DNA of 32,000 bases from Candidatus Scalindua sp. (GTDB lineage Bacteria; Planctomycetota; Brocadiia; Brocadiales; Scalinduaceae). Numbering within the stretch: the first letter of the stretch is position 1; each line of letters starts with the position of its first letter. Where the stretch lies: the NCBI GenBank assembly GCA_031316235.1, contig JALDRA010000002.1, positions 60,001-92,000 of the forward strand, read 5' to 3'. Below are positions 1,091 through 31,648 of this stretch, in pieces. The position numbers and the translations under genes were made by a program. Below the pieces are notes generated by a model. That model was not told the DNA's origin and ran no database searches. It was given only the letters and a program-made list of their open reading frames with translations.

Positions 1091-1281
1091 TGTTTACCAT
1101 TCTCATGAAGTTAAGGCTCATAAATCAGGAACTACAGCTTACCGTCACTGAAGTTGACCAATTTATCGGGGTTGATAAAATTGCAAGGTTTCGTTCAGCT
1201 ATATGGTGCTTGCACGAAAACCCTGTGTTTGAACGAAAACTATATACATAATACAGAAATCCAGGAAAACAAGAGAATATC

Positions 1282-3963: not shown

Positions 3964-4105
3964 TATGCTAAAGGACCGATTTGGTTTTAGATTTTTCTAG
4001 AGAACCAAACTGGATGCAGTTATCCCCCGGGCAAAAAGCGCCGAGGACTTTACTCGCTCAGCTTTTTTCTCTGATTTATCCGAAAATTATTATAAGATGA
4101 GTATA
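3964..4105 (+). repeat. TATAC-element copy A (long form, 5' terminus degenerate), in the dnaJ-grpE intergenic region
   Basis: Aligns over its whole length to copies at 14268, 15601(rc), 22501(rc), 25923 and 30066. Shared blocks are GGTTTTAGATTTTTCTA, TATCCCCCGGGCAAAAAGCGCCGAGGACTTTACTC and ATTATAAGATGAGTATA. Confidence 0.85.
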
Positions 4106-5572: not shown

Positions 5573-7195
5573 CTAACAAACGCTTCCCTCGACATAGTTG
5601 TCTTCATCTTCGCCTTCCTTTAAATCCGTAATCATTACCTCTGTTGTCAACATCAGACCTGCTATGCTTGCCGCATTCTGTAAAGCGGTACGGGTAACCT
5701 TTGCAGGATCTATTATTCCTTTAGCAAACATATCTACATATTCACACGTATTGGCATCAAACCCGATGTTGGCATCTTTTTCCTTCACCTCTTCCACAAC
5801 CACCGGACCATCTTCTCCTGCATTTGACACAATCTGTCGTAATGGTGCCTCAATGGCTTTGGCTATGATGTCTGCACCAATTTTCTCGTCTCCTCTGAGT
5901 TTTTTCCGCAGCTCTTCCAACTTTGGGATTGCCCGTATATATGCAGTTCCTCCACCGACAACAATTCCCTCTTCAACTGCCGCCCTGGTAGCGTGAAGTG
6001 CATCTTCGACCAAGGCCTTTCTCTCATTTACTTCTGCCTCAGTGGCACCTCCGACATTTATTACAGCAACACCACCGGTCAGTTTCGCAAGTCTTTCCTG
6101 AAATTTTTCTTTATCATAGTCAGATGAACTCTGTTCTATTTGATTCTTTATCTGCGAAATTCTCCCCTGCACATCAGCCTTCTTTCCGGCACCCTCAATT
6201 ATCGTAGTGTTGTCCTTGCTGATTACGACTCGCTTTGCAGTTCCGAGGTCACTCAGCTCAAGGCTTTCTAATTTTACCCCGAGGTCTTCTGAAATAAGAC
6301 GTCCTTTGGTAAGTATGGCAATATCCTCGAGCATGGCTTTTCTTCGATCACCGAAACCGGGAGCCTTTACGGCAGCACAGTTTATGACACCACGCAATTT
6401 ATTAACTACTAAAGTAGCCAATGCCTCACCTTCAACCTCCTCTGAAATGATCAGAAGAGATTTGCCCGCTCCCGCTATTTTCTCTAAAAGAGGAAGGAGT
6501 TCCTTCATGCTGGCAATCTTTTTTTCATGAATTAAAATATACGGGTCATCAAAAATAACTTCCATAGTCTGTGCATTGGTCACAAAATACGGAGAAATAA
6601 AGCCCTTGTCAAACTGCATTCCCTCAACAACATCTAATGTCGTTTCTATGCCTTTGGCTTCTTCAACCGTAATAACCCCGTCTTTCCCTACCTTATCCAT
6701 TGCATCAGCCAGGAGATTACCCACCGAGGCATTATTATTGGCAGAAATAGTTCCAACCTGTGCAATATGTGATCTGTCTTTGACCTTCTTGCTGGCATTT
6801 TTTATTGCCTCAACCACTTCAATTACGGCCTTGTCGATACCCCTCTTTAAAGCCATAGGATTTGCGCCGGCAGCAACTGCTTTTGCCCCTACATTAAAAA
6901 TTGCTTCGGCTAAAATAGTTGCCGTTGTTGTGCCATCTCCTGCCACATCACTGGTCTTCGAAGCAACTTCGCACACCATCTTTGCACCCATATTCTCAAA
7001 CGGGTCTATAAGAGTTACCTCTTTTGCAACCGACACACCGTCTTTTGTTACTGTTGGTGATCCAAAACTCTTCTCTAAAATCACATTTCTACCGGTAGGA
7101 CCCATTGTCACCCTAACAGCATCAGCCATTTTCTTAATCCCGTTTCGTATGTTTCTCCGTGCATCTTCACTGAATAAGAGCTGTTTTGCAGCCAT
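5573..7195 (-). CDS. groEL: Chaperonin GroEL paralogue lacking the GGM tail (ends ...[17 protein letters not shown])
   Basis: 540 aa, with canonical Cpn60 sequence along its length ([15 protein letters not shown]...AA.EEGIV.GGG). Confidence 0.95.
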
Positions 7196-7215
7196 AGTAA
7201 AACCTCCTGAATGTA

Positions 7216-7503
7216 TTAGTCAATTTTCGCCAAGATATCGCTTTCCTTAATAATGAGATATTCTTTCCCGTTAACGGTTATTTCTGTTCCTGCGTACTTC
7301 CCATAAAGAACCTGATCTCCCTTTTTAACCAGGAGCGCAGCTCTCTGACCATTATCCAAGAGTTTCCCATCTCCGATGGCTATCACCTTACCTTTTGTAG
7401 GTTTTTCCTTTGCTGAATCAGGCAAAACTATACCACCCTTTGTCTTCTCTTCTGCTTCCAAGGGTTCAACAACCACCCTGTCATCTAAAGGCCTAATCGC
7501 CAT
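7216..7503 (-). CDS. groES: Co-chaperonin GroES
   Basis: 95 aa. The sequence [41 protein letters not shown] is typical Cpn10. It ends 20 nt upstream of the groEL paralogue. Confidence 0.95.
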
Positions 7504-7564
7504 AATAATTTTCTCCTTCTATAAAATAAACATAATAAATAACATGATAAACAGCACTCGTTTT

Positions 7565-9247
7565 TTACATTCCCATGCCCGGCATGCCACCCATGCCGCC
7601 CATGCCGCCCATGCCACCCATGCCGCCTGGAGGCATTCCACCACCCGGAGGCATCATCGGCTCATCCTTACCTGGAACTTCTGTGATCAGGCAATCACAT
7701 GTCAGCAGTATCCCTGCAATACTTAAGGCATTCTGCAGAGCACACCTGGTAACTTTTGCAGGATCTATAACACCAGATTCGTAAAGATTACCATACTCTT
7801 CCTTTTCCGCATCATAACCAAATGCGTCATCTTTAGAGTTCAGAATCTTTCGCATGACCACGGTACCTTCAAGTCCGGCATTTTTAACAATTTGTTTCAA
7901 TGGAGCGCTGAGCGACTTCTTTATTATGTCAACGCCAATCTTTTCATCACCCTTCAGCTTAAGGGTATTCAACACCTCTGATGCCCTTAATAATGCTACA
8001 CCGCCACCAGGCAAAACACCTTCTTCGATTGCAGCACGGGTAGCGTGTAACGCATCCTCTACGCGTGCCTTCTTCTCCTTCATTTCAGTCTCGGTTGTTG
8101 CACCGATATTTATTTGTGCAACCCCGCCTGCCAGCTTTGCCAGCCTTTCCTGCAGCTTTTCTCTGTCATAATCAGAAGTAGTTTCACCTATCTCCATCCT
8201 GATCTGACTGATACGGCTTTTAACAGCATCAGATTTCCCGCCGCCCTGAACTATTATGGTGTTCTCAGAATCTATATTAATCTTCTTCGCTGTCCCAAGA
8301 TCGCTTAACTGTATATTTTCCAGCTGGATACCTAAATCTTTAAATACGGCCTTTGCACCAGTAAGAATTGCTATATCCTCCATCATAGCTTTCCTGCGAT
8401 CGCCATAACCCGGCGCCTTAACAGCAGCACAAGATACCGTTCCCCGAAGGTTGTTGACAACCAGGGTAGCCAATGCTTCCCCCTCAACATCCTCAGACAT
8501 AATCAGAAGCGGCCGCTTGGACTTCGCAATTTTTTCAAGTAAAGGAACAATCCCTTTAATAGTTGAAATCTTTTCCTCATGGATAAGAACATAGGCATCC
8601 TTCAGCTCTACCTTCATATTTTCTTTATCCGTGACAAAGCCTGAAGACAAATATCCACGATCAAACTGCATACCTTCAACTATCTCAACCTCGGTATTGA
8701 GACTCTTGCCCTCTTCAACGGTAATAACACCATCTTTCCCTACCTTGTCCATAGCGTTGGCAATCATCTTACCCGCTTCACTATCATTATTAGCAGCGAT
8801 AGTACCGATGTTGGTAATATCCTTCTGATCTTTAACCGGCTTGCTCATCTGCTTCAACTTTTCCACTACTTTATCCACCGCCACCTTCATCCCTCGGTTA
8901 AGTGCCACAGGGTTGGCACCCGCAGTGATACACTTTAACCCGTTATTAAGAATAGCCTCGGCTAAAATTGTAGCGGTAGTAGTTCCATCTCCGGCAACAT
9001 CACTGGTCTTGGAAGAAACTTCCCTTACCAGCTTTGCTCCCAGATTTTCGTAAGGATCTTTCAACTCTACCTCTTCTGCAACGGTCACCCCATCTTTTGT
9101 TATCGTTGGACTGCCCCATCCTTTATCAAGAACCGCATTCCTCCCCCTCGGACCCAATGTGGTCTTTACTGCACGCGCCAATTTAGAGACACCTCTCTTT
9201 ATTGCCAGCCGTGCGTCTTCGTTAAATGCCAACTGCTTTGCTGCCAT
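7565..9247 (-). CDS. groEL: Chaperonin GroEL with a canonical Gly-Gly-Met C-terminal tail
   Basis: 560 aa of Cpn60 sequence ending in [28 protein letters not shown]. It lies upstream of groES, separated by 61 nt with no terminator seen. Confidence 0.95.
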
Positions 9248-13867: not shown

Positions 13868-13951
13868 TATACTAAAACCAGAGCCTGGTTAATGGTAGAC
13901 TCGCTCAATTTTTTCCCGATTTTGTCCGAAATCCAGTATGAGATGAGTATA
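13868..13951 (+). repeat. TATAC-element copy K (84 bp, central module deleted)
   Basis: TATACTAAAACCAGAGCCTGGTTAATGGTA is joined directly to GACTCGCTCAATTTTTTCCCGATTTTGTCCGAAATCCAGTATGAGATGAGTATA. Both termini and the flanking modules are retained. Confidence 0.8.
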
Positions 13952-14267: not shown

Positions 14268-14437
14268 TATACTAAAACCGATCTGGTTTTCGGTTTTACC
14301 CGTCCCCGCCAGAATGAGTATCACCTGCCGGAAATCAAATCCTGGTGAAGGTATCCCCGAACAAAAAGCGTGCCGGGGACTTTACCCACTCAGTTTTTTT
14401 CCGGATTTTATCCGAAAACCATCATACGATGAGTATG
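14268..14437 (+). repeat. TATAC-element copy B (170 bp, carries a 44-bp internal replacement)
   Basis: Termini are TATACTAAAACCGATCTGGTTTTCGGTTTT and GGTATCCCCGAACAAAAAGCGTGCCGGGGACTTTACCC...CCGAAAACCATCATACGATGAGTAT. The segment 14298-14341 is not found in other copies. Confidence 0.85.
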
Positions 14438-15538: not shown

Positions 15539-15600
15539 AACAGAACGAACTGCCAATTTTTCATAGTACCACTATACGGCAAAAGCTGAAATAAGAATAA

Positions 15601-15738
15601 ATACTCATCTCATGCTGGATTTCGGAAAAAATCCGAAAAAAAACGGAGCGGGGAAAGTCCTCGACGTCTTGTCCGGGGATACCACTAACAAGACTTTGGT
15701 TTTTAGAAAAATCTAAAAAACAGATCGGTTTTCGTATA
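15601..15738 (-). repeat. TATAC-element copy C (long form), between the ABC ATPase and permease genes
   Basis: The reverse complement reads TATACGAAAACCGATCTGTTTTTTAGATTTTTCTAAAAACCAAAGTCTTGTTAGTGGTATCCCCGGACAAGACGTCGAGGACTTTCCCC...CCGAAATCCAGCATGAGATGAGTAT. Confidence 0.85.
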
Positions 15739-15786
15739 TAACGTATATAATCTGAATATGTGCACCACTATAAATAACTGAACTCC

Positions 15787-21120: not shown

Positions 21121-21320
21121 AACAATACCCTCTCCACCAACACTCCATTCACATTCTTTCGCAGATTAAACAGATTTCACAGATAATGAATGCAGATTGA
21201 AGAGTGCAGAGTGAAACAGCGAATAAAAATAGTCCTAAACAATGTTTACTACAAACTTAAACATTTTTAAACTTAATCCATGTGTTTGCATGTTTGACCT
21301 TTGACCTTTCAGTTTTTAGC

Positions 21321-21474
21321 TTATCAGCTATGAGCCCTGAACCTCTGAACCTTGAACCCAGAACCTCTAAACGCTTAACCCTGAACCCAGTACCCAGAAC
21401 CTCTGAACCCGGAACCCTGAACCTCTGAACCTCTGAACCCTGAACCCTGAACCCTGAACCTCTAAACGCTTACC
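21321..21474 (+). repeat. Degenerate heptanucleotide tandem array (CCCTGAA / CCTCTGAA / CCCAGAA units, about 20 units)
   Basis: Read directly from the sequence, for example CCCTGAA CCTCTGAA CCTTGAA CCCAGAA CCTCTAAA CGCTTAA CCCTGAA. It contains the motif CCTCTAAACGCTTA twice, and the same motif occurs in the 25.8-kb array. Confidence 0.9.
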
Positions 21475-21501
21475 TATTAAGGTGCCAAGAGAGAAGGGCT
21501 T

Positions 21502-22260: not shown

Positions 22261-22289
22261 TATACTCATATTGTAATGGTTTTTGTATA
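22261..22289 (-). repeat. Minimal 29-bp TATAC-element (copy J)
   Basis: The reverse complement is TATACAAAAACCATTACAATATGAGTATA, which is the 5' terminus of the long element fused to its 3' terminus. Confidence 0.8.
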
Positions 22290-22500: not shown

Positions 22501-22640
22501 TATACTCATCTCATAATGGTTTTCGGATAAAATCCGAGATAAAATTGAGCGGGTACAAGTCCTCGACACTTTTTGTCCGGGGATACCTTCACCAAGATCT
22601 GGTTTCCAGCAAAACCGAAAACCAGATCGGTTTTAGTATA
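22501..22640 (-). repeat. TATAC-element copy D (long form, subfamily 2)
   Basis: The reverse complement is TATACTAAAACCGATCTGGTTTTCGGTTTTGCTGGAAACCAGATCTTGGTGAAGGTATCCCCGGACAAAAAGTGTCGAGGACTTGTACCC...TCGGATTTTATCCGAAAACCATTATGAGATGAGTATA. Confidence 0.9.
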
Positions 22641-23240: not shown

Positions 23241-24470
23241 ATGACTATCGGTTGCAGCACAATGAAATACGATTTCGATCGTCTGATCTCACGGAAAAAC
23301 ACGGGCTGTATGAAGTGGGACGGTGCAAAGGCTCTCTTTGGTAATACGGATGTCATTCCAATGTGGGTAGCCGATATGGATATTCCTATTGCTCATCCCA
23401 TCACCGAAGCAATGAAAGAGAGAGTGGAACACAACATCTTTGGTTATCCGGTGCATCATCCTGAATCTGTCATGGAATCCATTATATATAGAATGCAGAA
23501 ATTGTACAGTTGGCAGATTCTGCCGGAATGGATTGTTTTTACACCCGGTATTATCCCGGCACTCTACACCTCGGTTCGGGCTTTTTCTCGCCCGGGAGAT
23601 GACGTTATTCTTCAGGGGCCAGTTTATCACCCCTTCTGGTCAGCCATCAGGGATAATGGGTGCCATGTATCTGAGAACCGTCTCTTACTCAATGATTCAC
23701 ACTATGAAATTGATTTTGATGATCTGAAAACCAAGTTTGGTACAAGAAGCGGCAGGCCCTCCGCACCTTCACGTGCACGTTTACTGATTTTATGTAGTCC
23801 ACACAACCCGGTAGGTCGGGTATGGACCGAAGAGGAGCTGACAAAGATCGGAGAAATTATCACAGGAAACGGAGCAATCATAGTTTCAGATGAAGTACAC
23901 AGTGAACTTCTCTTTCGTGATGCCAGACATACGCCGATTGCTTCATTATCTGAGGAATTTGAGCAAAATTCCATTACGTGCATTTCTCCAAGCAAGACCT
24001 TCAACCTTGCCGGATTATATGCATCAGCCATAATTATTCCTAACGCCAGATATCGCAGGAAATTCCAAGAGGCCCGCAAAGGGATTGTACCGGGACCGAA
24101 TGTATTCGGATTAACAGCAATGGAGGCCGCGTATAAACATGGAGACGAATGGCTGGAACAATTATTGGTATATCTGAACAGTAATCTGGAATATTTACTC
24201 GACTATTTTGAGAGGAGAATCCCTGCAATAAGGGTTATCAAACCAGAGGGGACCTACCTGGTATGGTTAGATTGCCGTAAACTGGGATTCGTCCCCGAAG
24301 ACCTGAAAAAATTCCTGACAAATGATGCAGAAGTTGGCCTTGATGAAGGCTCCCTTTTCGGACCAGGTGGTGCCGGTTTTGCGAGGATGAATATTGCCTG
24401 CCCCCGTTCAATTTTGACAGAAGCATTGAAGAGGTTAGAGTCTGCGGTTACTAGACTGAAACCATTATAA
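23241..24470 (+). CDS. PatB/MalY-type PLP-dependent C-S lyase (class I/II aminotransferase fold)
   Basis: MKYDFDRLISRKNTGCMKWDG is the typical N-terminus. Other matches are SPHNPVGRVW and the PLP-lysine region SPSKTFNLAG. The start may be ATG 23262 rather than 23241. Confidence 0.85.
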   Translation: MTIGCSTMKYDFDRLISRKNTGCMKWDGAKALFGNTDVIPMWVADMDIPIAHPITEAMKERVEHNIFGYPVHHPESVMESIIYRMQKLYSWQILPEWIVFTPGIIPALYTSVRAFSRPGDDVILQGPVYHPFWSAIRDNGCHVSENRLLLNDSHYEIDFDDLKTKFGTRSGRPSAPSRARLLILCSPHNPVGRVWTEEELTKIGEIITGNGAIIVSDEVHSELLFRDARHTPIASLSEEFEQNSITCISPSKTFNLAGLYASAIIIPNARYRRKFQEARKGIVPGPNVFGLTAMEAAYKHGDEWLEQLLVYLNSNLEYLLDYFERRIPAIRVIKPEGTYLVWLDCRKLGFVPEDLKKFLTNDAEVGLDEGSLFGPGGAGFARMNIACPRSILTEALKRLESAVTRLKPL

Positions 24471-24480
24471 GATGAGTATA
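24459..24480 (+). repeat. Solo 3' terminus of a TATAC-element, overlapping the C-S lyase stop codon
   Basis: AAACCATTATAAGATGAGTATA is identical to the 3' end of the copies at 4084-4105 and 26012-26033. The TAA at 24468-24470 is the gene's stop codon. Confidence 0.7.
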
Positions 24481-25500: not shown

Positions 25501-25529
25501 TATACGAAAACCATTATCTGATGAGTATA
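25501..25529 (+). repeat. Minimal 29-bp TATAC-element (copy H)
   Basis: TATACGAAAACCATTATCTGATGAGTATA, flanked by G and C to give GTATAC palindromes at both ends. Confidence 0.8.
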
Positions 25530-25532
25530 CAT

Positions 25533-25753
25533 CAAAAAAGAGTCTCTCGCAAAGCCGCAGAGATCGCAAGGAAGAATGAATGAAAATGAAACAGGCAGGG
25601 TTGTGGTTGATGAGTCTATTGTTTCATATAATATTTTACAAAAAGAATTGGATCTCCAATTCAAAGCTTAATGATTTACGAATAGTAGGAGATACAATAG
25701 GTAAACAACTTTCAAGTCTCATAAATTCAATAAAGAAAACAATTACGAAATAA
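25533..25753 (+). pseudogene. 5'-truncated, frameshifted remnant of a four-helix-bundle (23S rRNA IVS protein / Avd family) gene
   Basis: The frames read IKKESLAKPQRSQGRMNENETGRVVVDESIVSYNILQKELDLQFKA, then (shifted) LNDLRIVGDTIGKQLSSLINSIKKTITK followed by a stop. The last 9 codons match the end of the ORF at 30991-31215 (AATTCAATAAAGAAAACAAT[T/C]ACGAAATAA, one synonymous difference). Confidence 0.55.
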
Positions 25754-25884
25754 CCCTGAACCATCAGCCATGAGCTATGAGCTATGAGCCATCAGCCATA
25801 AGCCATGAACCATCAGCCATCAACCCTGAACCTCTGAACTCAGAACCTTTGAACCTCTAAACGCTTAACCATGAACCATCAGCC
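25754..25884 (+). repeat. Degenerate heptanucleotide tandem array (CCATCAG / CCATGAG / CTATGAG / CCCTGAA units)
   Basis: Read directly from the sequence. It starts immediately after the pseudogene stop codon and contains CCTCTAAACGCTTAA, as the 21.4-kb array does. Confidence 0.9.
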
Positions 25885-25922: not shown

Positions 25923-26033
25923 TATACTAAAAACCAAAGCCCGGCTGCTGGTATCCCCGGACCAGGCACCGAGGACTTTACTCTCTCCGTTTCTCCTCGG
26001 ATTTGGTCCGAAAACCATTATAAGATGAGTATA
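25923..26033 (+). repeat. TATAC-element copy E (111 bp, first hairpin module absent)
   Basis: TATACTAAAAACCAAAGCCCGGCTGCTGGTATCCCCGGACCAGGCACCGAGGACTTTACTC...TCGGATTTGGTCCGAAAACCATTATAAGATGAGTATA. Confidence 0.9.
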
Positions 26034-26144: not shown

Positions 26145-29100
26145 CTAATTAGCGTCATATAGCACTTCATTAGAATAACCACTTTCATTACCGGAACTGT
26201 TATAAGCAGTTACTGCAAGGTAATACGTTACGCCGCTTACAAGATCAGACAAGTCATATGTCGTTTGATTACCCACATCAATAATATCGTCATAATTGCT
26301 GCTTGAAATCCCATAGTATACTTTATAACCAGCAATGTCTTCCTCCGTGTTTTCATCCCAGGCAAGTATATCTGAATTCGTATCTAATACCGTTATCGTT
26401 ACATCCTGATAATCGGTTAATTCACCATCACTGACAGTGACTGTGACGGTATGGCCACCGGCGTCTTGAGCAGTTGTTGTGTAAGCACTTGAAGTCATCC
26501 AGCCGGAATAGGTATATGTCAGCGGATCATCATCCGGATCTGAGGCTGTGGGATTAAGGGTTATGGTCACTCCTTCGTTTACTACAATAGAGGGTATTGC
26601 GTCAAGTACCGGAGCACGATTTATGTTAGTAACCGTTACTGTAACAGACTGAGAATCCGATGCTGAACCGTCACTGACCGTTACCGTTACGGTATGATCA
26701 CCCGCATCATTATAAGAGGTCGTGTAACTTGCAGAAGTCATCCACCCGGAATAGCTGAATGCCAGCGCATCGCCATCAGGATCTGTTGCCGTAGGATTAA
26801 AGGTCACCGTATCACCCTCATTCACCGTGATATTGGTTAATGGATCCAGCACAGGCGCATTGTTCAATCCAGCCTCTTCCTGCTCTACTATTACAACGGT
26901 ATACATGCTCTTCCCGGCACCTTCATTACCACCCAGTGTAATCGTCCCTGAAATCACATTACTCGCATATAAGCTTAAGGTTGTATCCGTTGTTACAAGG
27001 TCTTCACCTATGTCAGTATAGGAGGATTCCAACCAGGATGGTTTCGGAGTTATGCGGTCATCATGAGCAACATACACGATAACGTCCTTATTGACATCAA
27101 AACTCAAAAATGATGAAGAGCTGGAGGCCTTGTCGTTGTTTGCCGTCTTGATGTAGGTGACACCTTCCATCCATACGGGTATTGCACTATAGGTATATCC
27201 ACGGTCAATGTATACCAATCCACCCTTCTGTAATCCATTTTCAACGATCTCATAGGCCTGGTTACTTGAGACAGTAAGGTTGGTAACAGATAGATCTGGT
27301 TCTGGTGTTATGTCCACATTGTTGACCGTTACCGTAACAGACTGAGAATCTGATGCTGCTCCGTCGCTGACGGTTACTGTTACGATATGATCCCCCGCAT
27401 CATCATAAGAGGTGCCATAACTTGCAGAGGTCATCCACCCGGAATAACTGAAGGTCAATGGGTCTCCGTCTGGATCGCTGGCTGTCGGGGCAAGAGTTAC
27501 CGTATCACCCTCATTTACCGTAACAGCCGTAAGATGGGCAAGTACCGGTGCCTGGTTAACATTGTTGACCGTTACCGTAACAGACTGGGTATCTGATGCT
27601 GTCCCGTCACTGACCGTTACCGTCACCGCATGATCACCCGCATCATTATAAGAGGTCGTGTAACTTGCAGAAGTCATCCACCCGGAATAGCTGAAGGTCA
27701 ATGGGTCTCCGTCTGGATCGCTGGCTGTCGGGGTAAGGGTTACCGTATCACCTTCATTAACCGTGATACCAGCTATATGATCCAATAGAGGAGCGGCATT
27801 CACATGAGCCATAACGTCAACTACCGTTATTGTTACGTCCTGAGAATCGATTGAAGCACCATCACTTACGGTTACTGTTACTGTGTGAGTTCCTGCATCG
27901 TTATAATTAGTTGTATAGCTCCTTGAAGTCATCCAGCCGGAATAACTGAAGGTCAAAGCGTCTCCATCTGGATCAGCAGCTGTAGGGGTAAGGGTTACCG
28001 TATCACCTTCTTCAACAATTACAACATTTTCCAGATCCTGTGCAACAAAAGATACTTCACCAGAGTAAATACTTTCATTACCTGATGAATCGTATGCGGT
28101 CACTGCCGCATAATAGGTTTCACCACTTATGAGACCAGAAAAGAGACAGTATGTCTGAATTCCAACATCAGTATGAGAACCATAATTTCCGCTTGCAGTC
28201 CCATAGTAAACTTTATAACCGGCAAGATCCTCTTCATTGTTAGGATCCCAAAACAATGTACCTTGAATATCTCCGCCAGTTCCAGAAATCGGATTGAGAA
28301 CAGGTGCACGATTAACATTATTCACCGTTATCGTAACAACCTGGGAATCTGATGCTGTCCCGTCACTGACCGTTACTGTCACAGTATGATCACCCGCATC
28401 ATCATAAGAGGTCGTGTAACTTGCAGAGGTCATCCACCCGGAATAGCTGAAGGTCAGGGTGTCTCCGTCTGCATCCGTTGCTGTCGGGGCAAGGGTCACC
28501 GTATCTCCCTCATTTACCATAACAGGCGAGAGAGTGGAAAGTACCGGTGCCTGGTTAACATTATTCACCGTTATCGTAACAACCTGGGTATCTGATGCTG
28601 TACCGTCACTGACTGTTACGGTCACAGCGTGATCACCCGCATCATCATGAGTTGTTGTGTAACTTGCAGAGGTCATCCACCCGGAATAGCTGAAGGTCAG
28701 GGTGTCTCCGTCTGCATCCGTTGCTGTCGGGGCAAGGGTCACCGTATCTCCCTCATTTACCGTAATCCCACTTAATGGATCCAGCACGGGTGCATTGTTC
28801 ACTTCCGCCACTTCCTGCCCTACTATTACGAAGGTATACATGCTCTTCCCGGAACCTTCATTACCACCAAGAGTAATGGTTCCTGAAATCACATTACTCG
28901 CATATAAGCTTAAGGTTGTATCCGTTGTTACAAGGTTTTCACCTATGTCGGTAAAGGAGGATTTCAACCAGGATGGTTTCGGAGTTATGCGGTCATCATG
29001 AGCAACATACACGATAACATCCTTATTGACATCAAAACTCAAAAATGATGAAGAGTTTGAAGATTTGTCGTTGTTTGCCGTATTGATGTAGGTGGCACCT

Positions 29101-29891
29101 TCCAGCCATACCGGTATTGCACTATAGGTATATCCACGGTCAATGTATACCAATCCACCATTCTGTAATCCATTTTCAACGATTTTATAGGCCTTGTTAC
29201 TTGAGACAGTAAGGTTGGTAACAGAAACATTTGGCACTGGCGTGATGTCCGCATCATTAACCGTTATCGTTATACTTTCCGAATCTGTCTCTTTACTGTC
29301 ACTTACGTGAAAGGTTACATTAGAATATGTTCCTGCCTGACTATAGGTTGGCGTCCATGAAAATGTTCTGCTGTTTTCATCAAAGCTCGCACCACTGGGG
29401 AGATTGCTTGCCGTATAAGCAAGTGTATCTCCTTCTGGATCTGTAGCGGAAATAATCAAGTTTAATGCCTGGTTTTCATTAACAGTTTTATTGCCGATCG
29501 CTGTTAATACCGGGGGAGAGTTAACTGATGTCAGATCGTTATAAACCACCTCATTAGAGTAAGTGCTTTCATTACCGGAGAAATCGTATGCCGTTACTGC
29601 CAGATAATAATCATTCCCGTCTCCAAGACCCGTAAGTGTGTAACTGGTCTGATTACCAACATCTTCATGAGAATTATAATTCCCACTTGACGTTCCGTAG
29701 TGTACTTTATAACCGGCAAGGTCATCTTCACTGTTTGGGTCCCATAATAACATATCAGCTTGCGCCGAACACAAATTGGATGTATTGATCAAAATCGCAA
29801 GGGTTAGTACGACAAAGGATATGATAGTGGAAATGGAGCAACGAAAATGGAGTGTTCTTGCAAGTTGCGATAAGACATTTTTTTGTGACAT
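26145..29891 (-). CDS. Large secreted repeat protein: 3 FN3-like modules, 8 cadherin-like/He_PIG-type Ig modules, and 2 copies of a ~150-aa uncharacterised beta-sandwich-like module
   Basis: 1248 aa with an N-terminal signal-like segment. FN3 pattern: WDPN.E.DLAGYKV.YG...YY.AVTAYD.SGNES.YS.EV. Cadherin-like pattern: VNEGDTVTL.PTA.D.DGD.LTFSYSGWMTS.SYTT...DAGDH.VTVTVSDG. No recognisable C-terminal anchor. Confidence 0.9.
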   Translation of the reverse strand: MSQKNVLSQLARTLHFRCSISTIISFVVLTLAILINTSNLCSAQADMLLWDPNSEDDLAGYKVHYGTSSGNYNSHEDVGNQTSYTLTGLGDGNDYYLAVTAYDFSGNESTYSNEVVYNDLTSVNSPPVLTAIGNKTVNENQALNLIISATDPEGDTLAYTASNLPSGASFDENSRTFSWTPTYSQAGTYSNVTFHVSDSKETDSESITITVNDADITPVPNVSVTNLTVSSNKAYKIVENGLQNGGLVYIDRGYTYSAIPVWLEGATYINTANNDKSSNSSSFLSFDVNKDVIVYVAHDDRITPKPSWLKSSFTDIGENLVTTDTTLSLYASNVISGTITLGGNEGSGKSMYTFVIVGQEVAEVNNAPVLDPLSGITVNEGDTVTLAPTATDADGDTLTFSYSGWMTSASYTTTHDDAGDHAVTVTVSDGTASDTQVVTITVNNVNQAPVLSTLSPVMVNEGDTVTLAPTATDADGDTLTFSYSGWMTSASYTTSYDDAGDHTVTVTVSDGTASDSQVVTITVNNVNRAPVLNPISGTGGDIQGTLFWDPNNEEDLAGYKVYYGTASGNYGSHTDVGIQTYCLFSGLISGETYYAAVTAYDSSGNESIYSGEVSFVAQDLENVVIVEEGDTVTLTPTAADPDGDALTFSYSGWMTSRSYTTNYNDAGTHTVTVTVSDGASIDSQDVTITVVDVMAHVNAAPLLDHIAGITVNEGDTVTLTPTASDPDGDPLTFSYSGWMTSASYTTSYNDAGDHAVTVTVSDGTASDTQSVTVTVNNVNQAPVLAHLTAVTVNEGDTVTLAPTASDPDGDPLTFSYSGWMTSASYGTSYDDAGDHIVTVTVSDGAASDSQSVTVTVNNVDITPEPDLSVTNLTVSSNQAYEIVENGLQKGGLVYIDRGYTYSAIPVWMEGVTYIKTANNDKASSSSSFLSFDVNKDVIVYVAHDDRITPKPSWLESSYTDIGEDLVTTDTTLSLYASNVISGTITLGGNEGAGKSMYTVVIVEQEEAGLNNAPVLDPLTNITVNEGDTVTFNPTATDPDGDALAFSYSGWMTSASYTTSYNDAGDHTVTVTVSDGSASDSQSVTVTVTNINRAPVLDAIPSIVVNEGVTITLNPTASDPDDDPLTYTYSGWMTSSAYTTTAQDAGGHTVTVTVSDGELTDYQDVTITVLDTNSDILAWDENTEEDIAGYKVYYGISSSNYDDIIDVGNQTTYDLSDLVSGVTYYLAVTAYNSSGNESGYSNEVLYDAN

Positions 29892-29942: not shown

Positions 29943-30065
29943 ATTGCCTGGCAGCTTTGCAACCGTATCCTAAAATAGAGGACGTAGGCCTAAGTTTTGC
30001 GTCCTGCCCTTTCGAACAGTTTGCCTTTTTCAGGTTTTTATTAGATTTTTGTTATTTCTCAGTTA

Positions 30066-30206
30066 TATACTAACACCAATCTGGTTTTAGATTTTTCTAA
30101 AAACCAAAGCCTGGTTAATGGTATCCCCGGACAACCAGGTGCCGAGGACTTTACTCATTCCGTTTTTTCTCGGATTTTATTTGAAATCCATTATATGACG
30201 AGTATA
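30066..30206 (+). repeat. TATAC-element copy F (141 bp, best-preserved subfamily-1 copy)
   Basis: TATACTAACACCAATCTGGTTTTAGATTTTTCTAAAAACCAAAGCCTGGTTAATGGTATCCCCGGACAACCAGGTGCCGAGGACTTTACTCATTCCGTTTTTTCTCGGATTTTATTTGAAATCCATTATATGACGAGTATA. Confidence 0.9.
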
Positions 30207-30726: not shown

Positions 30727-30755
30727 TGTACGAAAACCATTATCCGATGAGTATA
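30727..30755 (+). repeat. Minimal 29-bp TATAC-element (copy I)
   Basis: TGTACGAAAACCATTATCCGATGAGTATA, differing from copy H at only 2 positions. Confidence 0.75.
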
Positions 30756-30990: not shown

Positions 30991-31215
30991 ATGATGGAGA
31001 AAATGTGTGAAACAAAGTTTAGTTTTGAAGATTTAGATGTCTGGCAAAAATCTATAGATTTTGCAGTGAGTGTTATTGGCATTGCAGATACAATGAATTC
31101 TGATCGCAATCATTATAGATTGATAGAACAATTAGAATCATCCCCAACATCAATTTCAGCAAATATTGCTGAAGGTAAATGGCGTAATTCAATAAAGAAA
31201 ACAATCACGAAATAA
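30991..31215 (+). CDS. Truncated four-helix-bundle protein (23S rRNA intervening-sequence protein / DGR Avd family), an in-frame internal deletion derivative
   Basis: FSFEDLDVWQKSIDF...HYRLIEQLESSPTSISANIAEGKWRNS matches the family pattern F.DL.VWQK......Y.L..Q..R...SI..NIAEG..R.S. A typical family member runs about 115-125 aa, whereas this ORF has 74 aa and jumps directly to the C-terminal IKKTITK. Confidence 0.7.
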   Translation: MMEKMCETKFSFEDLDVWQKSIDFAVSVIGIADTMNSDRNHYRLIEQLESSPTSISANIAEGKWRNSIKKTITK

Positions 31216-31350
31216 TTATCAACCATCAGCCATCAACCATAAACTTCTGAAGGCTGAACGCTTAAACATAAACCATAAACCATGAGCCCTGAGCCATCAG
31301 CCATCAGCCATCAGCCATGAACCATGAGCTTTAATCTTTGAGCCTTTGGC
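31216..31350 (+). repeat. Degenerate heptanucleotide tandem array immediately after the four-helix-bundle ORF
   Basis: TTATCAA CCATCAG CCATCAA CCATAAA ... CCATGAG CCCTGAG CCATCAG CCATCAG CCATCAG CCATGAA CCATGAG, read directly from the sequence. Confidence 0.9.
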
Positions 31351-31404
31351 TTTGTTTGTTTTTATACTTTTTAGATTTGACCCATTGCCCTTTCAGCCTT
31401 TAAC

Positions 31405-31467
31405 TATGCCATGAGCTATGATCCATCAGCCATCAGCCATGAACCATCAGCCATGAACCATGAACCA
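31405..31467 (+). repeat. Second downstream heptamer array
   Basis: CCATGAG CTATGAT CCATCAG CCATCAG CCATGAA CCATCAG CCATGAA CCATGAA. It is preceded by TTTGACC...CCTTTCAG, the same leader seen before the 21.3-kb array. Confidence 0.85.
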
Positions 31468-31648
31468 GGTGCAAAATAACAGGTGGCTGCCTGCTGTCAT
31501 GACAGTACAACTGGGGCAGAAAACGAGGTTATAAACGATGTAGTTGATACGACAAGTCGCAGTTTACAAAACCAGATAGTTGCTGATTTTTCGAAATTGT
31601 GCATGATGTTATTTATCCAACTGTTGAGCCTTAAACCTGGCAGCTTGT

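Follow-up and report, generated by a model that had tools for sequence, protein, structure and literature searches.

A probable MITE-like foldback repeat of Candidatus Scalindua with nested modules and complementary arms

The hairpin-rich element analysed here is assigned, with a probability of roughly 70%, to the MITE-like foldback DNA repeats, as a non-autonomous family that is confined to marine anammox Planctomycetota of the type Candidatus Scalindua, and the repeat is probably mobile or once-mobile selfish DNA. Its MITE traits are short non-coding copies, terminal inverted repeats, a dispersed and mostly intergenic distribution, and orthologous sites that are filled in some genomes and empty in others. 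The window, i.e., the whole 32-kb stretch of DNA that was analysed, contains 11 copies, of which 7 are long and 4 are minimal (approximately 30 nt) (Table 1), and the end motif GATGAGTATA (at most one mismatch) is found 15 times in the window against 2.2 expected, a number matched by 0 of 100 shuffles. In 974 kb of fetched DNA, 176 copies were detected with nhmmer, including 135 of full length. The element is present at 55 of 67 metagenome loci, and the family is plentiful in Candidatus Scalindua genomes and marine metagenomes, while none of the viral contigs searched carries a copy. The exact 24-nt end pattern is matched by at least 120 genome stretches, 118 of which are Scalindua, Scalinduaceae, or Planctomycetota MAGs; the Saprospiraceae and Spirochaetales matches lie in coding DNA and were dismissed as chance matches. 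Copies range from 30 to 236 nt and contain no ORF, they are seen in both orientations, and 128 of the 135 full-length copies are located outside ORFs of at least 120 aa. No description of this family, or of any Scalindua MITE, was found in the searchable literature.

The core of the repeat is A+T-rich (33% G+C) and takes the form of two hairpin domains in 114 nt, with the bounds TATAC...GTATA and with each domain bounded by TA. In domain 1 (nt 1 to 57), the terminal repeat TATACTCATC..TGGTTTTCGG is folded on an inverted copy of itself, and domain 2 (nt 58 to 113) terminates in a second inverted copy of the terminal blocks. The terminal repeats are imperfect, with TATACT and TGGTTTTCGG inverted at both ends and matching at 16 of 26 nt. 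The element termini are more than 95% conserved among 131 copies, a value that for nt 2 to 25 is partly an ascertainment effect because the fetched loci were picked by a pattern within the left end. The original prediction had described the element as a set of hairpin modules whose arms differ between copies and remain complementary. All of the sequences and coordinates quoted in it were verified, the shortened copies lack the modules it named, and its small TCGGA/TCCGA hairpin (module 3) is present, with a 5' arm that belongs to the terminal repeat. The four minimal copies of the window (H, I, J, and K) are additional to its list.

Table 1. Copies of the repeat in the window and features of copy E, the subject of the original prediction (positions counted from the first nucleotide of the window)
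Feature	Position	Strand	Description
Copy E	22501..22640	+	140 nt; core with module-2 cassette and module-1 allele a; covariance model score 72.3 bits
Left terminal inverted repeat of E	22501..22526	+	TATACT-N10-TGGTTTTCGG; both blocks recur reverse-complemented at the right end
Module 3 hairpin of E	22520..22539	+	TTTTCGGA-TAAAA-TCCGAGA; 5' arm within the terminal repeat; helix 2 is 96% paired
Module-2 cassette of E	22556..22585	+	Arms GTCCTCG (22559-22565) and CCGGGGA (22577-22583); loop ACACTTTTTGT (22566-22576)
Module-1 hairpin of E	22596..22628	+	GATCTGGTTT/AAACCAGATC, 10 bp; 22596-22605 with 22619-22628
Right terminal inverted repeat of E	22615..22640	-	Minus-strand reading TATACTAAAACCGATCTGGTTTTCGG
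Copy A	3964..4105	-	Between dnaJ and grpE; degenerate, right end GCATA
Copy B	13868..13951	-	84 nt; without module-2 cassette and module-1 tip
Copy C	14268..14437	-	170 nt; G+C-rich cassette fragment in module-1 loop
Copy D	15600..15738	+	Private stem GTCTTGT/ACAAGAC; same site in relatives without insertion
Copy F	25923..26033	-	111 nt; module-1 tip deleted between GGTTTT repeats
Copy G	30066..30206	-	Private stem CCTGGTT/AACCAGG; directly upstream of c-di-GMP-I riboswitch
Minimal copy H	22261..22289	+	TATACTCATATTGTAATGGTTTTTGTATA; in Scalindua sp. AMX11 this site has a long copy
Minimal copy I	25501..25529	-	TATACTCATCAGATAATGGTTTTCGTATA
Minimal copy J	30727..30755	-	Right end degenerate
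Minimal/remnant copy K	24452..24480	-	Left terminal repeat alone intact

The module-1 stems that had been reported as different sequences, GATCTGGTTT/AAACCAGATC and GGTTTTTAGA/TCTAAAACC, are both present; they are not unrelated, however, and represent two alleles at the tip of a single hairpin, with TGGTTT/AAACCA in common. Module 2 is an optional cassette of 20 to 29 nt that has its own hairpin (TCCTCGG/CCGGGGA) and is located where domains 1 and 2 meet, at TA|TA; all 97 of its 97 occurrences are within the element, and it never stands on its own. The stems CCTGGTT/AACCAGG and GTCTTGT/ACAAGAC assigned to this module do exist, but the module had been mis-parsed: the sequence TGGTATCCCCGG, regarded as a conserved loop, is actually the 3' arm (CCGGGGA) of the cassette hairpin AAGTCCTCGG-loop-CCGGGGA, and the supposed closing stem is formed by the cassette loop with downstream core sequence in three window copies. 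This stem is 7 bp long only in copies D and G and, with G-U pairs included, in copy F (GCCTGGT/GCCGGGC). One other copy has 6 bp, and the stem is missing from the other 75 genomic copies and from 54 of 55 metagenomic copies; the lone metagenomic 7-nt match comes from a truncated copy, in a T/A run of low complexity. When further sequence of the window's genome was sought to examine the private stem, a first metagenome pattern gave 0 matches, matching by exact protein yielded short Logan contigs at most, and the relative L126, which is 96 to 97% identical to the window, has two further copies, both without the module-2 cassette.

The proposed division of the copies into two subfamilies is too simple, as module states are found in nearly all combinations and almost every pair of states occurs in all four. 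Variation arises mainly from the presence or absence of cassettes, from deletions between the short direct repeats GGTTT(T), and from the shuffling of segments between copies. The deletions give forms of 85, 57, and 30 nt; 57-nt left domains standing alone and deletion forms joined at GGTTT repeats were both observed, and one copy has an exactly inverted module-1 hairpin. The position of minimal copy H at the site of a long AMX11 copy indicates that minimal forms arise via deletion in place. G+C-rich hairpin cassettes of 26 to 55 nt are nested in loops at fixed insertion points (core positions 27 and 81 for types II and IV), and of 35 such cassettes 9 are found outside the element, in another host repeat. 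In cassette-free copies the junction is always TA-TA and never a single TA, which a simple TA-duplication model of cassette gain does not predict. When the flanks of the fetched loci were compared with BLAST to find empty sites, the only outcome was L045 and L119, which have the same flanks and different cassettes and form a single pair that could be an assembly chimera.

Selection on secondary structure, which had been proposed to explain why pairing survives changes in sequence, agrees with the data in one part of the element: the left foldback covaries in a divergent marine subfamily, whereas the core is without covariation and its paired bases are not spared. In 36 cassette-free core copies from three genomes, aligned with MAFFT, 92.8% pairing is observed compared with 92.8 ± 0.1% in shuffles (407 of 500 shuffles reach the observed value), and 1 pair is changed on both sides compared with 1.9 in shuffles. 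Covariation is therefore absent from this sample, a result that the original prediction had itself named as speaking against it. Rare variants amount to 2.36% at paired and 2.34% at unpaired core positions (p = 0.76), which shows that individual copies decay irrespective of pairing. Copy A and its L126 orthologue differ at 7 of 141 positions, with no compensation. An alignment of 134 covariance-model matches, in which 30 pairs (188 cells) appeared to be changed on both sides, was rejected, as truncated matches had been forced end to end; the signal was false because the module-2 cassette hairpin overlaid helix 4, and it is absent from the clean MAFFT alignment.

The left-domain hairpin of the divergent marine subfamily contains 8 pairs changed on both sides, compared with 3.1 ± 0.9 in shuffles (0 of 500), and one of its pairs occurs in four standard types (U-A in 9 copies, A-U in 8, G-U in 4, and G-C in 3). 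The covarying helix is independently recovered by RNAalifold. Two copies are perfect 24-bp palindromes that are three fully compensated pairs apart, two substitutions are compensated in the private stem of copies D and G, and core pair 72-98 in the module-1 hairpin is C-G in copy E alone and T-A in the family. Across 140 distinct copies, the 5' and 3' arms of the same copy pair with -13.96 kcal/mol, compared with -12.95 ± 0.14 kcal/mol for swapped arms (0 of 200 shuffles). Overall, propagating lineages keep the complementarity of the arms, and in most cases arms that differ are alternative cassettes or alleles rather than products of base-by-base compensation. The 5' arm that covaries, however, is itself the terminal inverted repeat, and explanations other than selection on a folded RNA fit at least as well, namely a protein-binding sequence present in two orientations or a templated correction of one arm against the other.

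Selection on RNA structure was one option in the original prediction. A structured RNA, either cis-regulatory or small, whose hairpins are kept by RNA-level selection, is in our view very unlikely. All 7 of the 7 long window copies are co-oriented with at least one neighbouring gene, and several are located within operons, e.g., in the dnaJ-grpE gap and in an ABC ATPase-permease gap; across genomes, however, the orientation relative to co-directional flanking genes is the same in 36 cases and opposite in 26. The family consensus folds more stably than its shuffles on both strands, as RNA (z = -6.5 and -7.2) and as DNA (z = -6.3 and -6.0), and so does copy E (RNA, z = -4.1 and -4.4; DNA, z = -3.2 and -2.6). 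Neither strand is favoured in these comparisons, where a consistently better-folding strand would have indicated the functional one, and the fold is lost in older copies; the two degenerate copies fold like shuffles, with z = -1.3 at 3964 (20 of 200 shuffles do as well) and z = -1.2 at 13868 (31 of 200). The stems often contain wobbles of the G-U type, which fits an RNA, but the favoured strand differs between the two hairpins, being the top strand in one and the bottom strand in the second; as a strand test, the wobble counts are mixed, since a few consensus positions dominate and point in opposite directions in the two domains. The covariation of the left hairpin in the marine subfamily fits RNA-level selection, and the equal accumulation of rare variants at paired and unpaired positions does not, while the copy number and insertion polymorphism suit selfish DNA. 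No Rfam 15 family matches the element (best score, 18 bits against a threshold of 163), and the lone Rfam match in the window is the unrelated c-di-GMP-I riboswitch. Scans for promoter-like and terminator-like sites within the element revealed no excess over chance.

Arms that differ and yet remain complementary could also be a mutational by-product, in which one arm serves as the template for the other when replication switches templates, with no structural selection. Quasi-palindromes would then be repeatedly perfected, and cassette loops would come to match nearby sequence. Template switching is documented as a process that creates and maintains hairpins (PMC8794818). We regard this explanation, which competes with the claim of selection and is compatible with a MITE, as possible although somewhat unlikely. 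It would account for the perfect 24-bp palindromes, in which several compensated pairs differ at once, for the private stems of D, F, and G, in which the cassette loop is paired with the downstream variant of the same copy, for the exact inversion of the module-1 hairpin, and for the lack of purifying selection on pairing in dispersed copies; on the other hand, many copies retain uncorrected mismatches. A REPIN-like element moved as single-stranded DNA by a REP-associated tyrosine transposase (RAYT), with the hairpins as the recognition signal and pairing directly selected, is quite unlikely, even though a bona fide RAYT (NF047646, 190.9 bits, cut-off 80) is encoded at L126:16252-16803, a few kilobases from element copies. 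In a REPIN, two REPs in inverted orientation give a hairpin (PMC3116915), and the present element is nearly all hairpin; its nested G+C-rich cassettes, which are also found in other host repeats, are REP-like, and in the hairpins next to the ends the wobbles fall on whichever strand reads inward from that end. However, with its A+T-rich sequence and a length of 114 nt or more, the element is no G+C-rich palindrome of 20 to 40 nt, the nested cassettes alone being G+C-rich palindromes, and its hairpins have no adjacent GTAG or CGTC tag of the kind described for REPs (PMC3733652). The RAYT was seen at one locus only, nothing in its flanks recurs elsewhere in the fetched DNA, the repeat family included, and paired bases are not spared by rare variants.

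The MITE-like reading is consistent with the distribution of filled and empty sites. Where the window has copy D, the corresponding site is empty in L127, L128, and L125, and a decayed right end occupies it in AMX11. AMX11 has an element at the site of copy E, and none was detected there in the CBDCUS genome (L125), where the alignment is poor. TA is fixed at both ends, which is compatible with a TA duplication; the lone clean empty site (L127) is strongly diverged and blurred by a 9-nt duplication, so that it does not suffice to prove one. A comparison of the flanks revealed no variable direct repeat outside TATAC..GTATA, and k-mer matches were at chance level. Approximately 1.3 Mb of fetched Scalindua DNA was scanned for an autonomous partner as a solo left end with an ORF and an inverted end, and as TATACT...AGTATA pairs 0.8 to 3 kb apart; neither search revealed an autonomous element that shares these ends, and the scan yielded only neighbouring MITE copies around ordinary genes. 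An insert of 1.7 kb in L084, an IS110-family pseudogene in a cassette loop, was rejected as the mobiliser.

In the mechanism that we propose, a transposase supplied in trans would recognise the terminal blocks, and the element would integrate at A/T-rich, probably TA, sites. A DDE enzyme that targets TA is our tentative choice of driver, at slightly less than even odds. The internal right-end-like sequence in domain 1 may allow either domain 1 alone or the whole element to move. In multiplying lineages, complementarity would be kept either because the arms constitute one binding sequence in opposite orientations or because template switching corrects arm against arm, and single insertions would afterwards decay neutrally.

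The same cassette occurs at two element positions and in other host repeats, which indirectly suggests that the cassettes may be independently mobile. A two-level system can be envisaged on this basis, although we regard it as unlikely. At the first level, cassettes of 26 to 55 nt, themselves mobile and perhaps RAYT-driven, would insert at precise loop points immediately 5' of TAAAAYC, without target duplication, into the loops of the A+T-rich foldback scaffold and of other Scalindua repeats. At the second level, the cassette loop of the window lineage would have evolved a 7-bp helix with the downstream core; this helix and the cassette stem would form an H-type pseudoknot kept via compensated changes in D, F, and G.

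The repeat is a clean example of how arms can differ between copies and keep their complementarity, probably without RNA-level selection; covariation is located where one arm is the presumed transposon end, and dispersed copies decay neutrally. With 11 copies in the 32-kb window, it takes up a noticeable share of the intergenic space, and it breaks short-read assemblies, as in the Logan contigs L121 and L122, which stop within a copy. Because copies are located within operons and beside a riboswitch, the repeat matters for anammox bacteria whenever their genomes are annotated or binned or their strains are typed.

The Scalindua repeat looks like a new family of an already familiar type rather than a new kind of element. 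It resembles the TA-bounded bacterial MITEs Correia of Neisseria, ERIC/IRU of enterobacteria, and RUP of pneumococcus (PMC3184786) in being approximately 100 to 160 bp, non-coding, intergenic, and high-copy. Further shared features are the terminal inverted repeats, the TA at either end, predicted folds of high stability, size variants produced by internal insertions and deletions at fixed points, and a cognate transposase that often has yet to be identified. It has no sequence similarity to these families. Its terminal repeats consist of two short blocks instead of a continuous repeat of 20 to 26 bp, its left half is a complete foldback of the terminal repeat, its fixed TA ends are a candidate duplication only, and its host is an anammox planctomycete. 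With BOX of Streptococcus pneumoniae (boxA-boxB(n)-boxC) and the BIMEs of Escherichia coli, it shares a small set of modules in varied numbers and combinations, with G+C-rich palindromes among other motifs, and IS110-family elements target repeats of this type, as the pseudogene in one Scalindua cassette loop recalls (PMC3184786, PMC2817692); in the Scalindua repeat, by contrast, the modules are nested in hairpin loops and junctions rather than arranged in tandem, and the scaffold has transposon-like ends. Like REPINs (PMC3116915, PMC2817692), the repeat is scattered through intergenic DNA as doublets of short inverted repeats that form hairpins, and a near relative has a RAYT gene; in contrast to REPINs, the main element is A+T-rich and longer, is without a tag tetranucleotide, and showed no RAYT-repeat linkage.

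Precise-point insertion in several host sequences is a trait of another type of repeat, the Nostoc small dispersed repeats (SDR), and was found for the G+C-rich cassettes and not for the module-2 cassette. The SDRs of Elhai et al. (2008), 21 to 27 nt in length, are reportedly nested in MITEs of Nostoc punctiforme and are said to be tiny hairpin units that lie at precise points in larger repeats with no obvious target duplication; for the SDRs as for the Scalindua cassettes, heptamer tandem repeats reportedly share the intergenic regions. The organism and the sequences differ. If the two-level system is true, its cassettes would correspond, in a planctomycete, to the Nostoc SDRs, which still lack an explanation. 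The nested cassettes add a second example, and a tractable one, of the "very small mobile repeats", which are poorly understood.

The commonest form of the repeat is a 114-nt core (TATACTCATCTCATAATGGTTTTCGGATAAAATCCGAGATAAAATTGAGCGAGTATAACTGCAACCAAGATTTGGTTTCCAGTAAAACCGAAAACCAAATCGGTTTTAGTATAT) that is predicted to fold into two hairpin domains, nt 1 to 57 and nt 58 to 110, with fold z-scores on the two strands of -6.5 and -7.2 as RNA and -6.3 and -6.0 as DNA. TATACT and TGGTTTTCGG occur at both core ends in inverted orientation. The TATAC and GTATA termini are conserved in more than 95% of 131 copies, and no variable direct repeat was found in the flanks beyond them. All stems and coordinates quoted in the original prediction are present in the window. 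Its module 3 is indeed a hairpin, the left one, with the correction that the 5' arm belongs to the terminal repeat; its module 1 is the right hairpin, and the stems described as different share TGGTTT/AAACCA and are two alleles of that hairpin's tip.

Longer forms carry inserts (cassettes) at fixed points in the core. Module 2 is such an optional cassette, 20 to 29 nt long (AAGTCCTCGG-loop-CCGGGGA) and found in approximately 60% of copies exactly between the two TAs of GAGTATA. Since the cassette-free junction is always GAGTA-TA-ACTG (19 exact matches, e.g., L040:7341-7360, versus 0 for GAGTA-ACTG), the cassette lies between two TAs without an extra duplication. The supposed conserved loop TGGTATCCCCGG belongs, as 3' arm, to the stem within the cassette, TCCTCGG/CCGGGGA, which is conserved in 81 copies and has a T-G wobble at its center, and the mark of subfamily 2, ACAAAAAG[C/T]G, is merely the commonest loop of this cassette. 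G+C-rich hairpin cassettes of 26 to 55 nt are inserted after nt 27 (left-hairpin loop), nt 60, and nt 81 (right-hairpin loop). Cassettes CCTGCCTGTGCG...CGCAGACAGG and CCCGCCCGGCC...GGACGGG are also located within other, unrelated Scalindua repeats; within the main element, the former is on the element's top strand in 26/26 cases. Shorter forms, joined at direct repeats GGTTT(T), include 85-nt forms, stand-alone left domains of 57 nt, and minimal copies of 30 nt; a long copy occupies the site of minimal copy H in Scalindua sp. AMX11, and thus the minimal forms arise by in-place deletion. Nearly all pairwise combinations of module states (cassette presence, ACTGCA or CCTTCA spacer, tip allele a or b, and G+C-rich cassettes) are seen, so the family is a mosaic, not a pair of subfamilies. 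In the copy at L014:5707-5879, the common module-1 hairpin allele is present in exact reverse complement (a hairpin flip). Two contigs of the same MAG carry the element (L045:3494-3659 and L119:761-872) with flanks that are 97% identical, and the module-2 and type V cassettes are in just one of the two copies; either an assembly chimera or inter-copy gene conversion would account for this difference.

Copies of the repeat in the window, and G+C-rich cassettes outside the element (L numbers, fetched genomic or metagenomic loci)
Feature	Position	Strand	Remark
Long copy A	3964-4105	-	Oriented with TATACTC at 5' end
Long copy B	13868-13951	-	Oriented with TATACTC at 5' end
Long copy C	14268-14437	-	Oriented with TATACTC at 5' end
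Long copy D	15600-15738	+	Oriented with TATACTC at 5' end
Copy E (140 nt), under study	22501-22640	+	Reads TATACTCATC...GGTTTTAGTATA
Long copy F	25923-26033	-	Oriented with TATACTC at 5' end
Long copy G	30066-30206	-	Oriented with TATACTC at 5' end
Minimal copy H (~30 nt)	22261-22289	+	Missing from original list
Minimal copy K (~30 nt)	24452-24480	-	Missing from original list
Minimal copy I (~30 nt)	25501-25529	-	Missing from original list
Minimal copy J (~30 nt)	30727-30755	-	Missing from original list
G+C-rich cassettes outside element	L114:5471-5507, L014:1783-1819, L070:466-505, L098:7125-7161, L008:5185-5214		And others

The end motif GATGAGTATA (at most 1 mismatch) occurs 15 times in the window against 2.2 expected, a number reached in 0 of 100 shuffles. 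The genes around the copies are housekeeping genes (grpE, dnaJ, two groEL genes and groES, H+-pyrophosphatase, rsfS, and others). The two groEL genes, paralogues of 540 and 560 aa with ~65% DNA identity, lie on either side of groES (5573-9247, minus strand); positions 7572-7625 encode a GGM-repeat tail of the second. This gene arrangement is kept in AMX11 and the CBDCUS genome. Copy G is just 30 nt upstream of a c-di-GMP-I riboswitch (29947-30035, minus strand; 62.3 bits, E = 4e-10), which directly precedes a gene for a 1248-aa Big_9/PKD/cadherin/fn3 surface protein (26145-29891). Intergenic tandem arrays of 7-nt units (GAACCCT, GAACCTC, and CAGCCAT type; 21315-21482, 25724-25877, and 31186-31491) frequently adjoin copies and are reminiscent of heptamer repeats in cyanobacteria and large sulfur bacteria.

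An exact 24-nt left-end pattern matched at least 120 stretches in a one-genome-per-species collection, a set that does not include the window's own genome; 118 are from Candidatus Scalindua, Scalinduaceae, or Planctomycetota MAGs, and the remaining 2, in coding DNA, were rejected as chance matches. The nearest available relative is the ENA contig L126, with 96 to 97% identity across 11 kb. Searching 974 kb with a profile of the window copies yielded 176 copies (135 full-length), and a second pattern retrieved 67 metagenome loci, 55 of which carry the element. None of the viral contigs searched has it, and the literature search returned no description of this repeat.

The closing stem proposed for module 2, between the cassette loop and the downstream core, is narrowly distributed. 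Seven Watson-Crick pairs form only in D and G, seven including G-U in F, and six in one RBC_AMX3 copy, whereas the other 75 genomic copies have 2 to 5 pairs, not above permuted partners (76/500). It is absent from the 55 metagenomic copies, except for a 7-nt low-complexity T/A run in one truncated copy. The stem in D and G is still remarkable because two 3'-arm substitutions are matched in the loop; added to the stem within the cassette, this helix would create a putative H-type pseudoknot (n = 3 copies).

Three tests spoke against selection on secondary structure, as originally suggested, for most copies, and one test, on a divergent subfamily, spoke for it. Among 36 cassette-free cores aligned with MAFFT, one pair is double-changed versus 1.9 in shuffles, and pairing is 92.8% versus 92.8 ± 0.1%; sliding partners by 1 to 3 columns reduces it to 29 to 48%, and the core structure is therefore real, though without covariation. 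Rare variants (<5% frequency; 129 copies from well-sampled genomes) occur as often at paired (2.36%) as at unpaired (2.34%) positions (p = 0.76). The copy A orthologue in a 96 to 97% identical relative differs at 7/141 positions, none compensated, and the older window copies A and B are no more stably folded than shuffled sequences. Seemingly strong covariation in a covariance-model alignment was rejected as artefactual, the truncated matches having been forced to fit the model. The metagenomic copies belong to a divergent subfamily whose left domain is a long, near-perfect foldback, CTCAAAATNGTTTTCGGA / TCCAAAAACN'ATTTTGAG. Here, 33 left domains (MAFFT) contain 8 double-changed pairs versus 3.1 ± 0.9 in shuffles (0/500), one pair takes four standard pair types, and RNAalifold recovers the same helix; L144 and L148 are perfect 24-bp palindromes three compensated pairs apart. 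Across 140 distinct copies, own arms give -13.96 kcal/mol versus -12.95 ± 0.14 kcal/mol for swapped arms (0/200). The nulls for the bulk of copies, taken with this covariation, indicate that complementarity is kept in propagating lineages and not in each resident copy.

We regard the element as selfish mobile DNA, with a probability of roughly 0.7, and as a MITE-like foldback DNA repeat that would be mobilised in trans and probably integrates at TA sites. The window has copy D between the genes for an ABC ATPase and its permease. The corresponding site has no more than a decayed right end in AMX11 and is empty in three further relatives, one of which has 14 nt between the two genes; at the empty site of another (87% protein identity), the alignment places AAAAATA and TCTGAATATG on either side of the junction. 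This comparison establishes insertion. A target duplication is not readable at D, since the left TA is mutated and the right end (15733-15750) contains a 9-nt tandem duplication, CGTATATAA CGTATATAA, which blurs the insertion junction. No autonomous element with the same ends was found in ~1.3 Mb searched. A REPIN-like mechanism driven by a RAYT (REP-associated tyrosine transposase) could draw on the genuine RAYT gene of a close relative (L126:16252-16803, NF047646, 190.9 bits), ~5 kb past the window's left edge; however, its flanks show no link to any repeat and recur in none of the fetched loci, and we consider this mechanism doubtful. A second MITE family, a ~105-nt inverted-repeat element with ends TTTGAACGAAAACT...AGTTTTCGTTCAAG, is present at L126:9764-9870 and absent at window positions 1221-1236, an insertion polymorphism. 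An IS110-family transposase pseudogene, split into ORFs of 283 and 121 aa (L084:4508-6220), sits in a module-2 cassette loop and splits one element copy; palindromic repeats are known IS110 targets.

A structured-RNA role of the element is quite unlikely. Relative to co-directional flanking genes, 36 copies have the same orientation and 26 the opposite one, and neither strand folds consistently better. In the consensus, wobbles of the left hairpin favor the top strand and those of the right hairpin the bottom strand; both times this is the strand that reads inward from whichever end is closer. Rfam contains no family matching the element, and sequences resembling promoters or terminators are no more frequent in it than chance predicts. 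The 5' arm that covaries is none other than the terminal inverted repeat, and the simplest reading of the covarying foldback is a transposon end with an inverted copy thereof. Template switching between arms (PMC8794818) could credibly give rise to the compensated changes without selection and is compatible with the MITE-like reading.

The element has the size, terminal repeats, dispersal, and filled and empty sites of a MITE and does not have the defining features of a REP. It is similar in modularity to BOX elements and BIMEs, and its nested tiny hairpins are similar to those of the small dispersed repeats that Elhai reportedly described in Nostoc in 2008. The repeat is a new family, ordinary in type but well-formed, and only the nesting of cassettes and the lineage-specific extra helix could exceed an ordinary MITE-like family. 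TA-bounded MITEs such as Correia, ERIC, and RUP behave similarly, including in their insertion/deletion size variants (PMC3184786).
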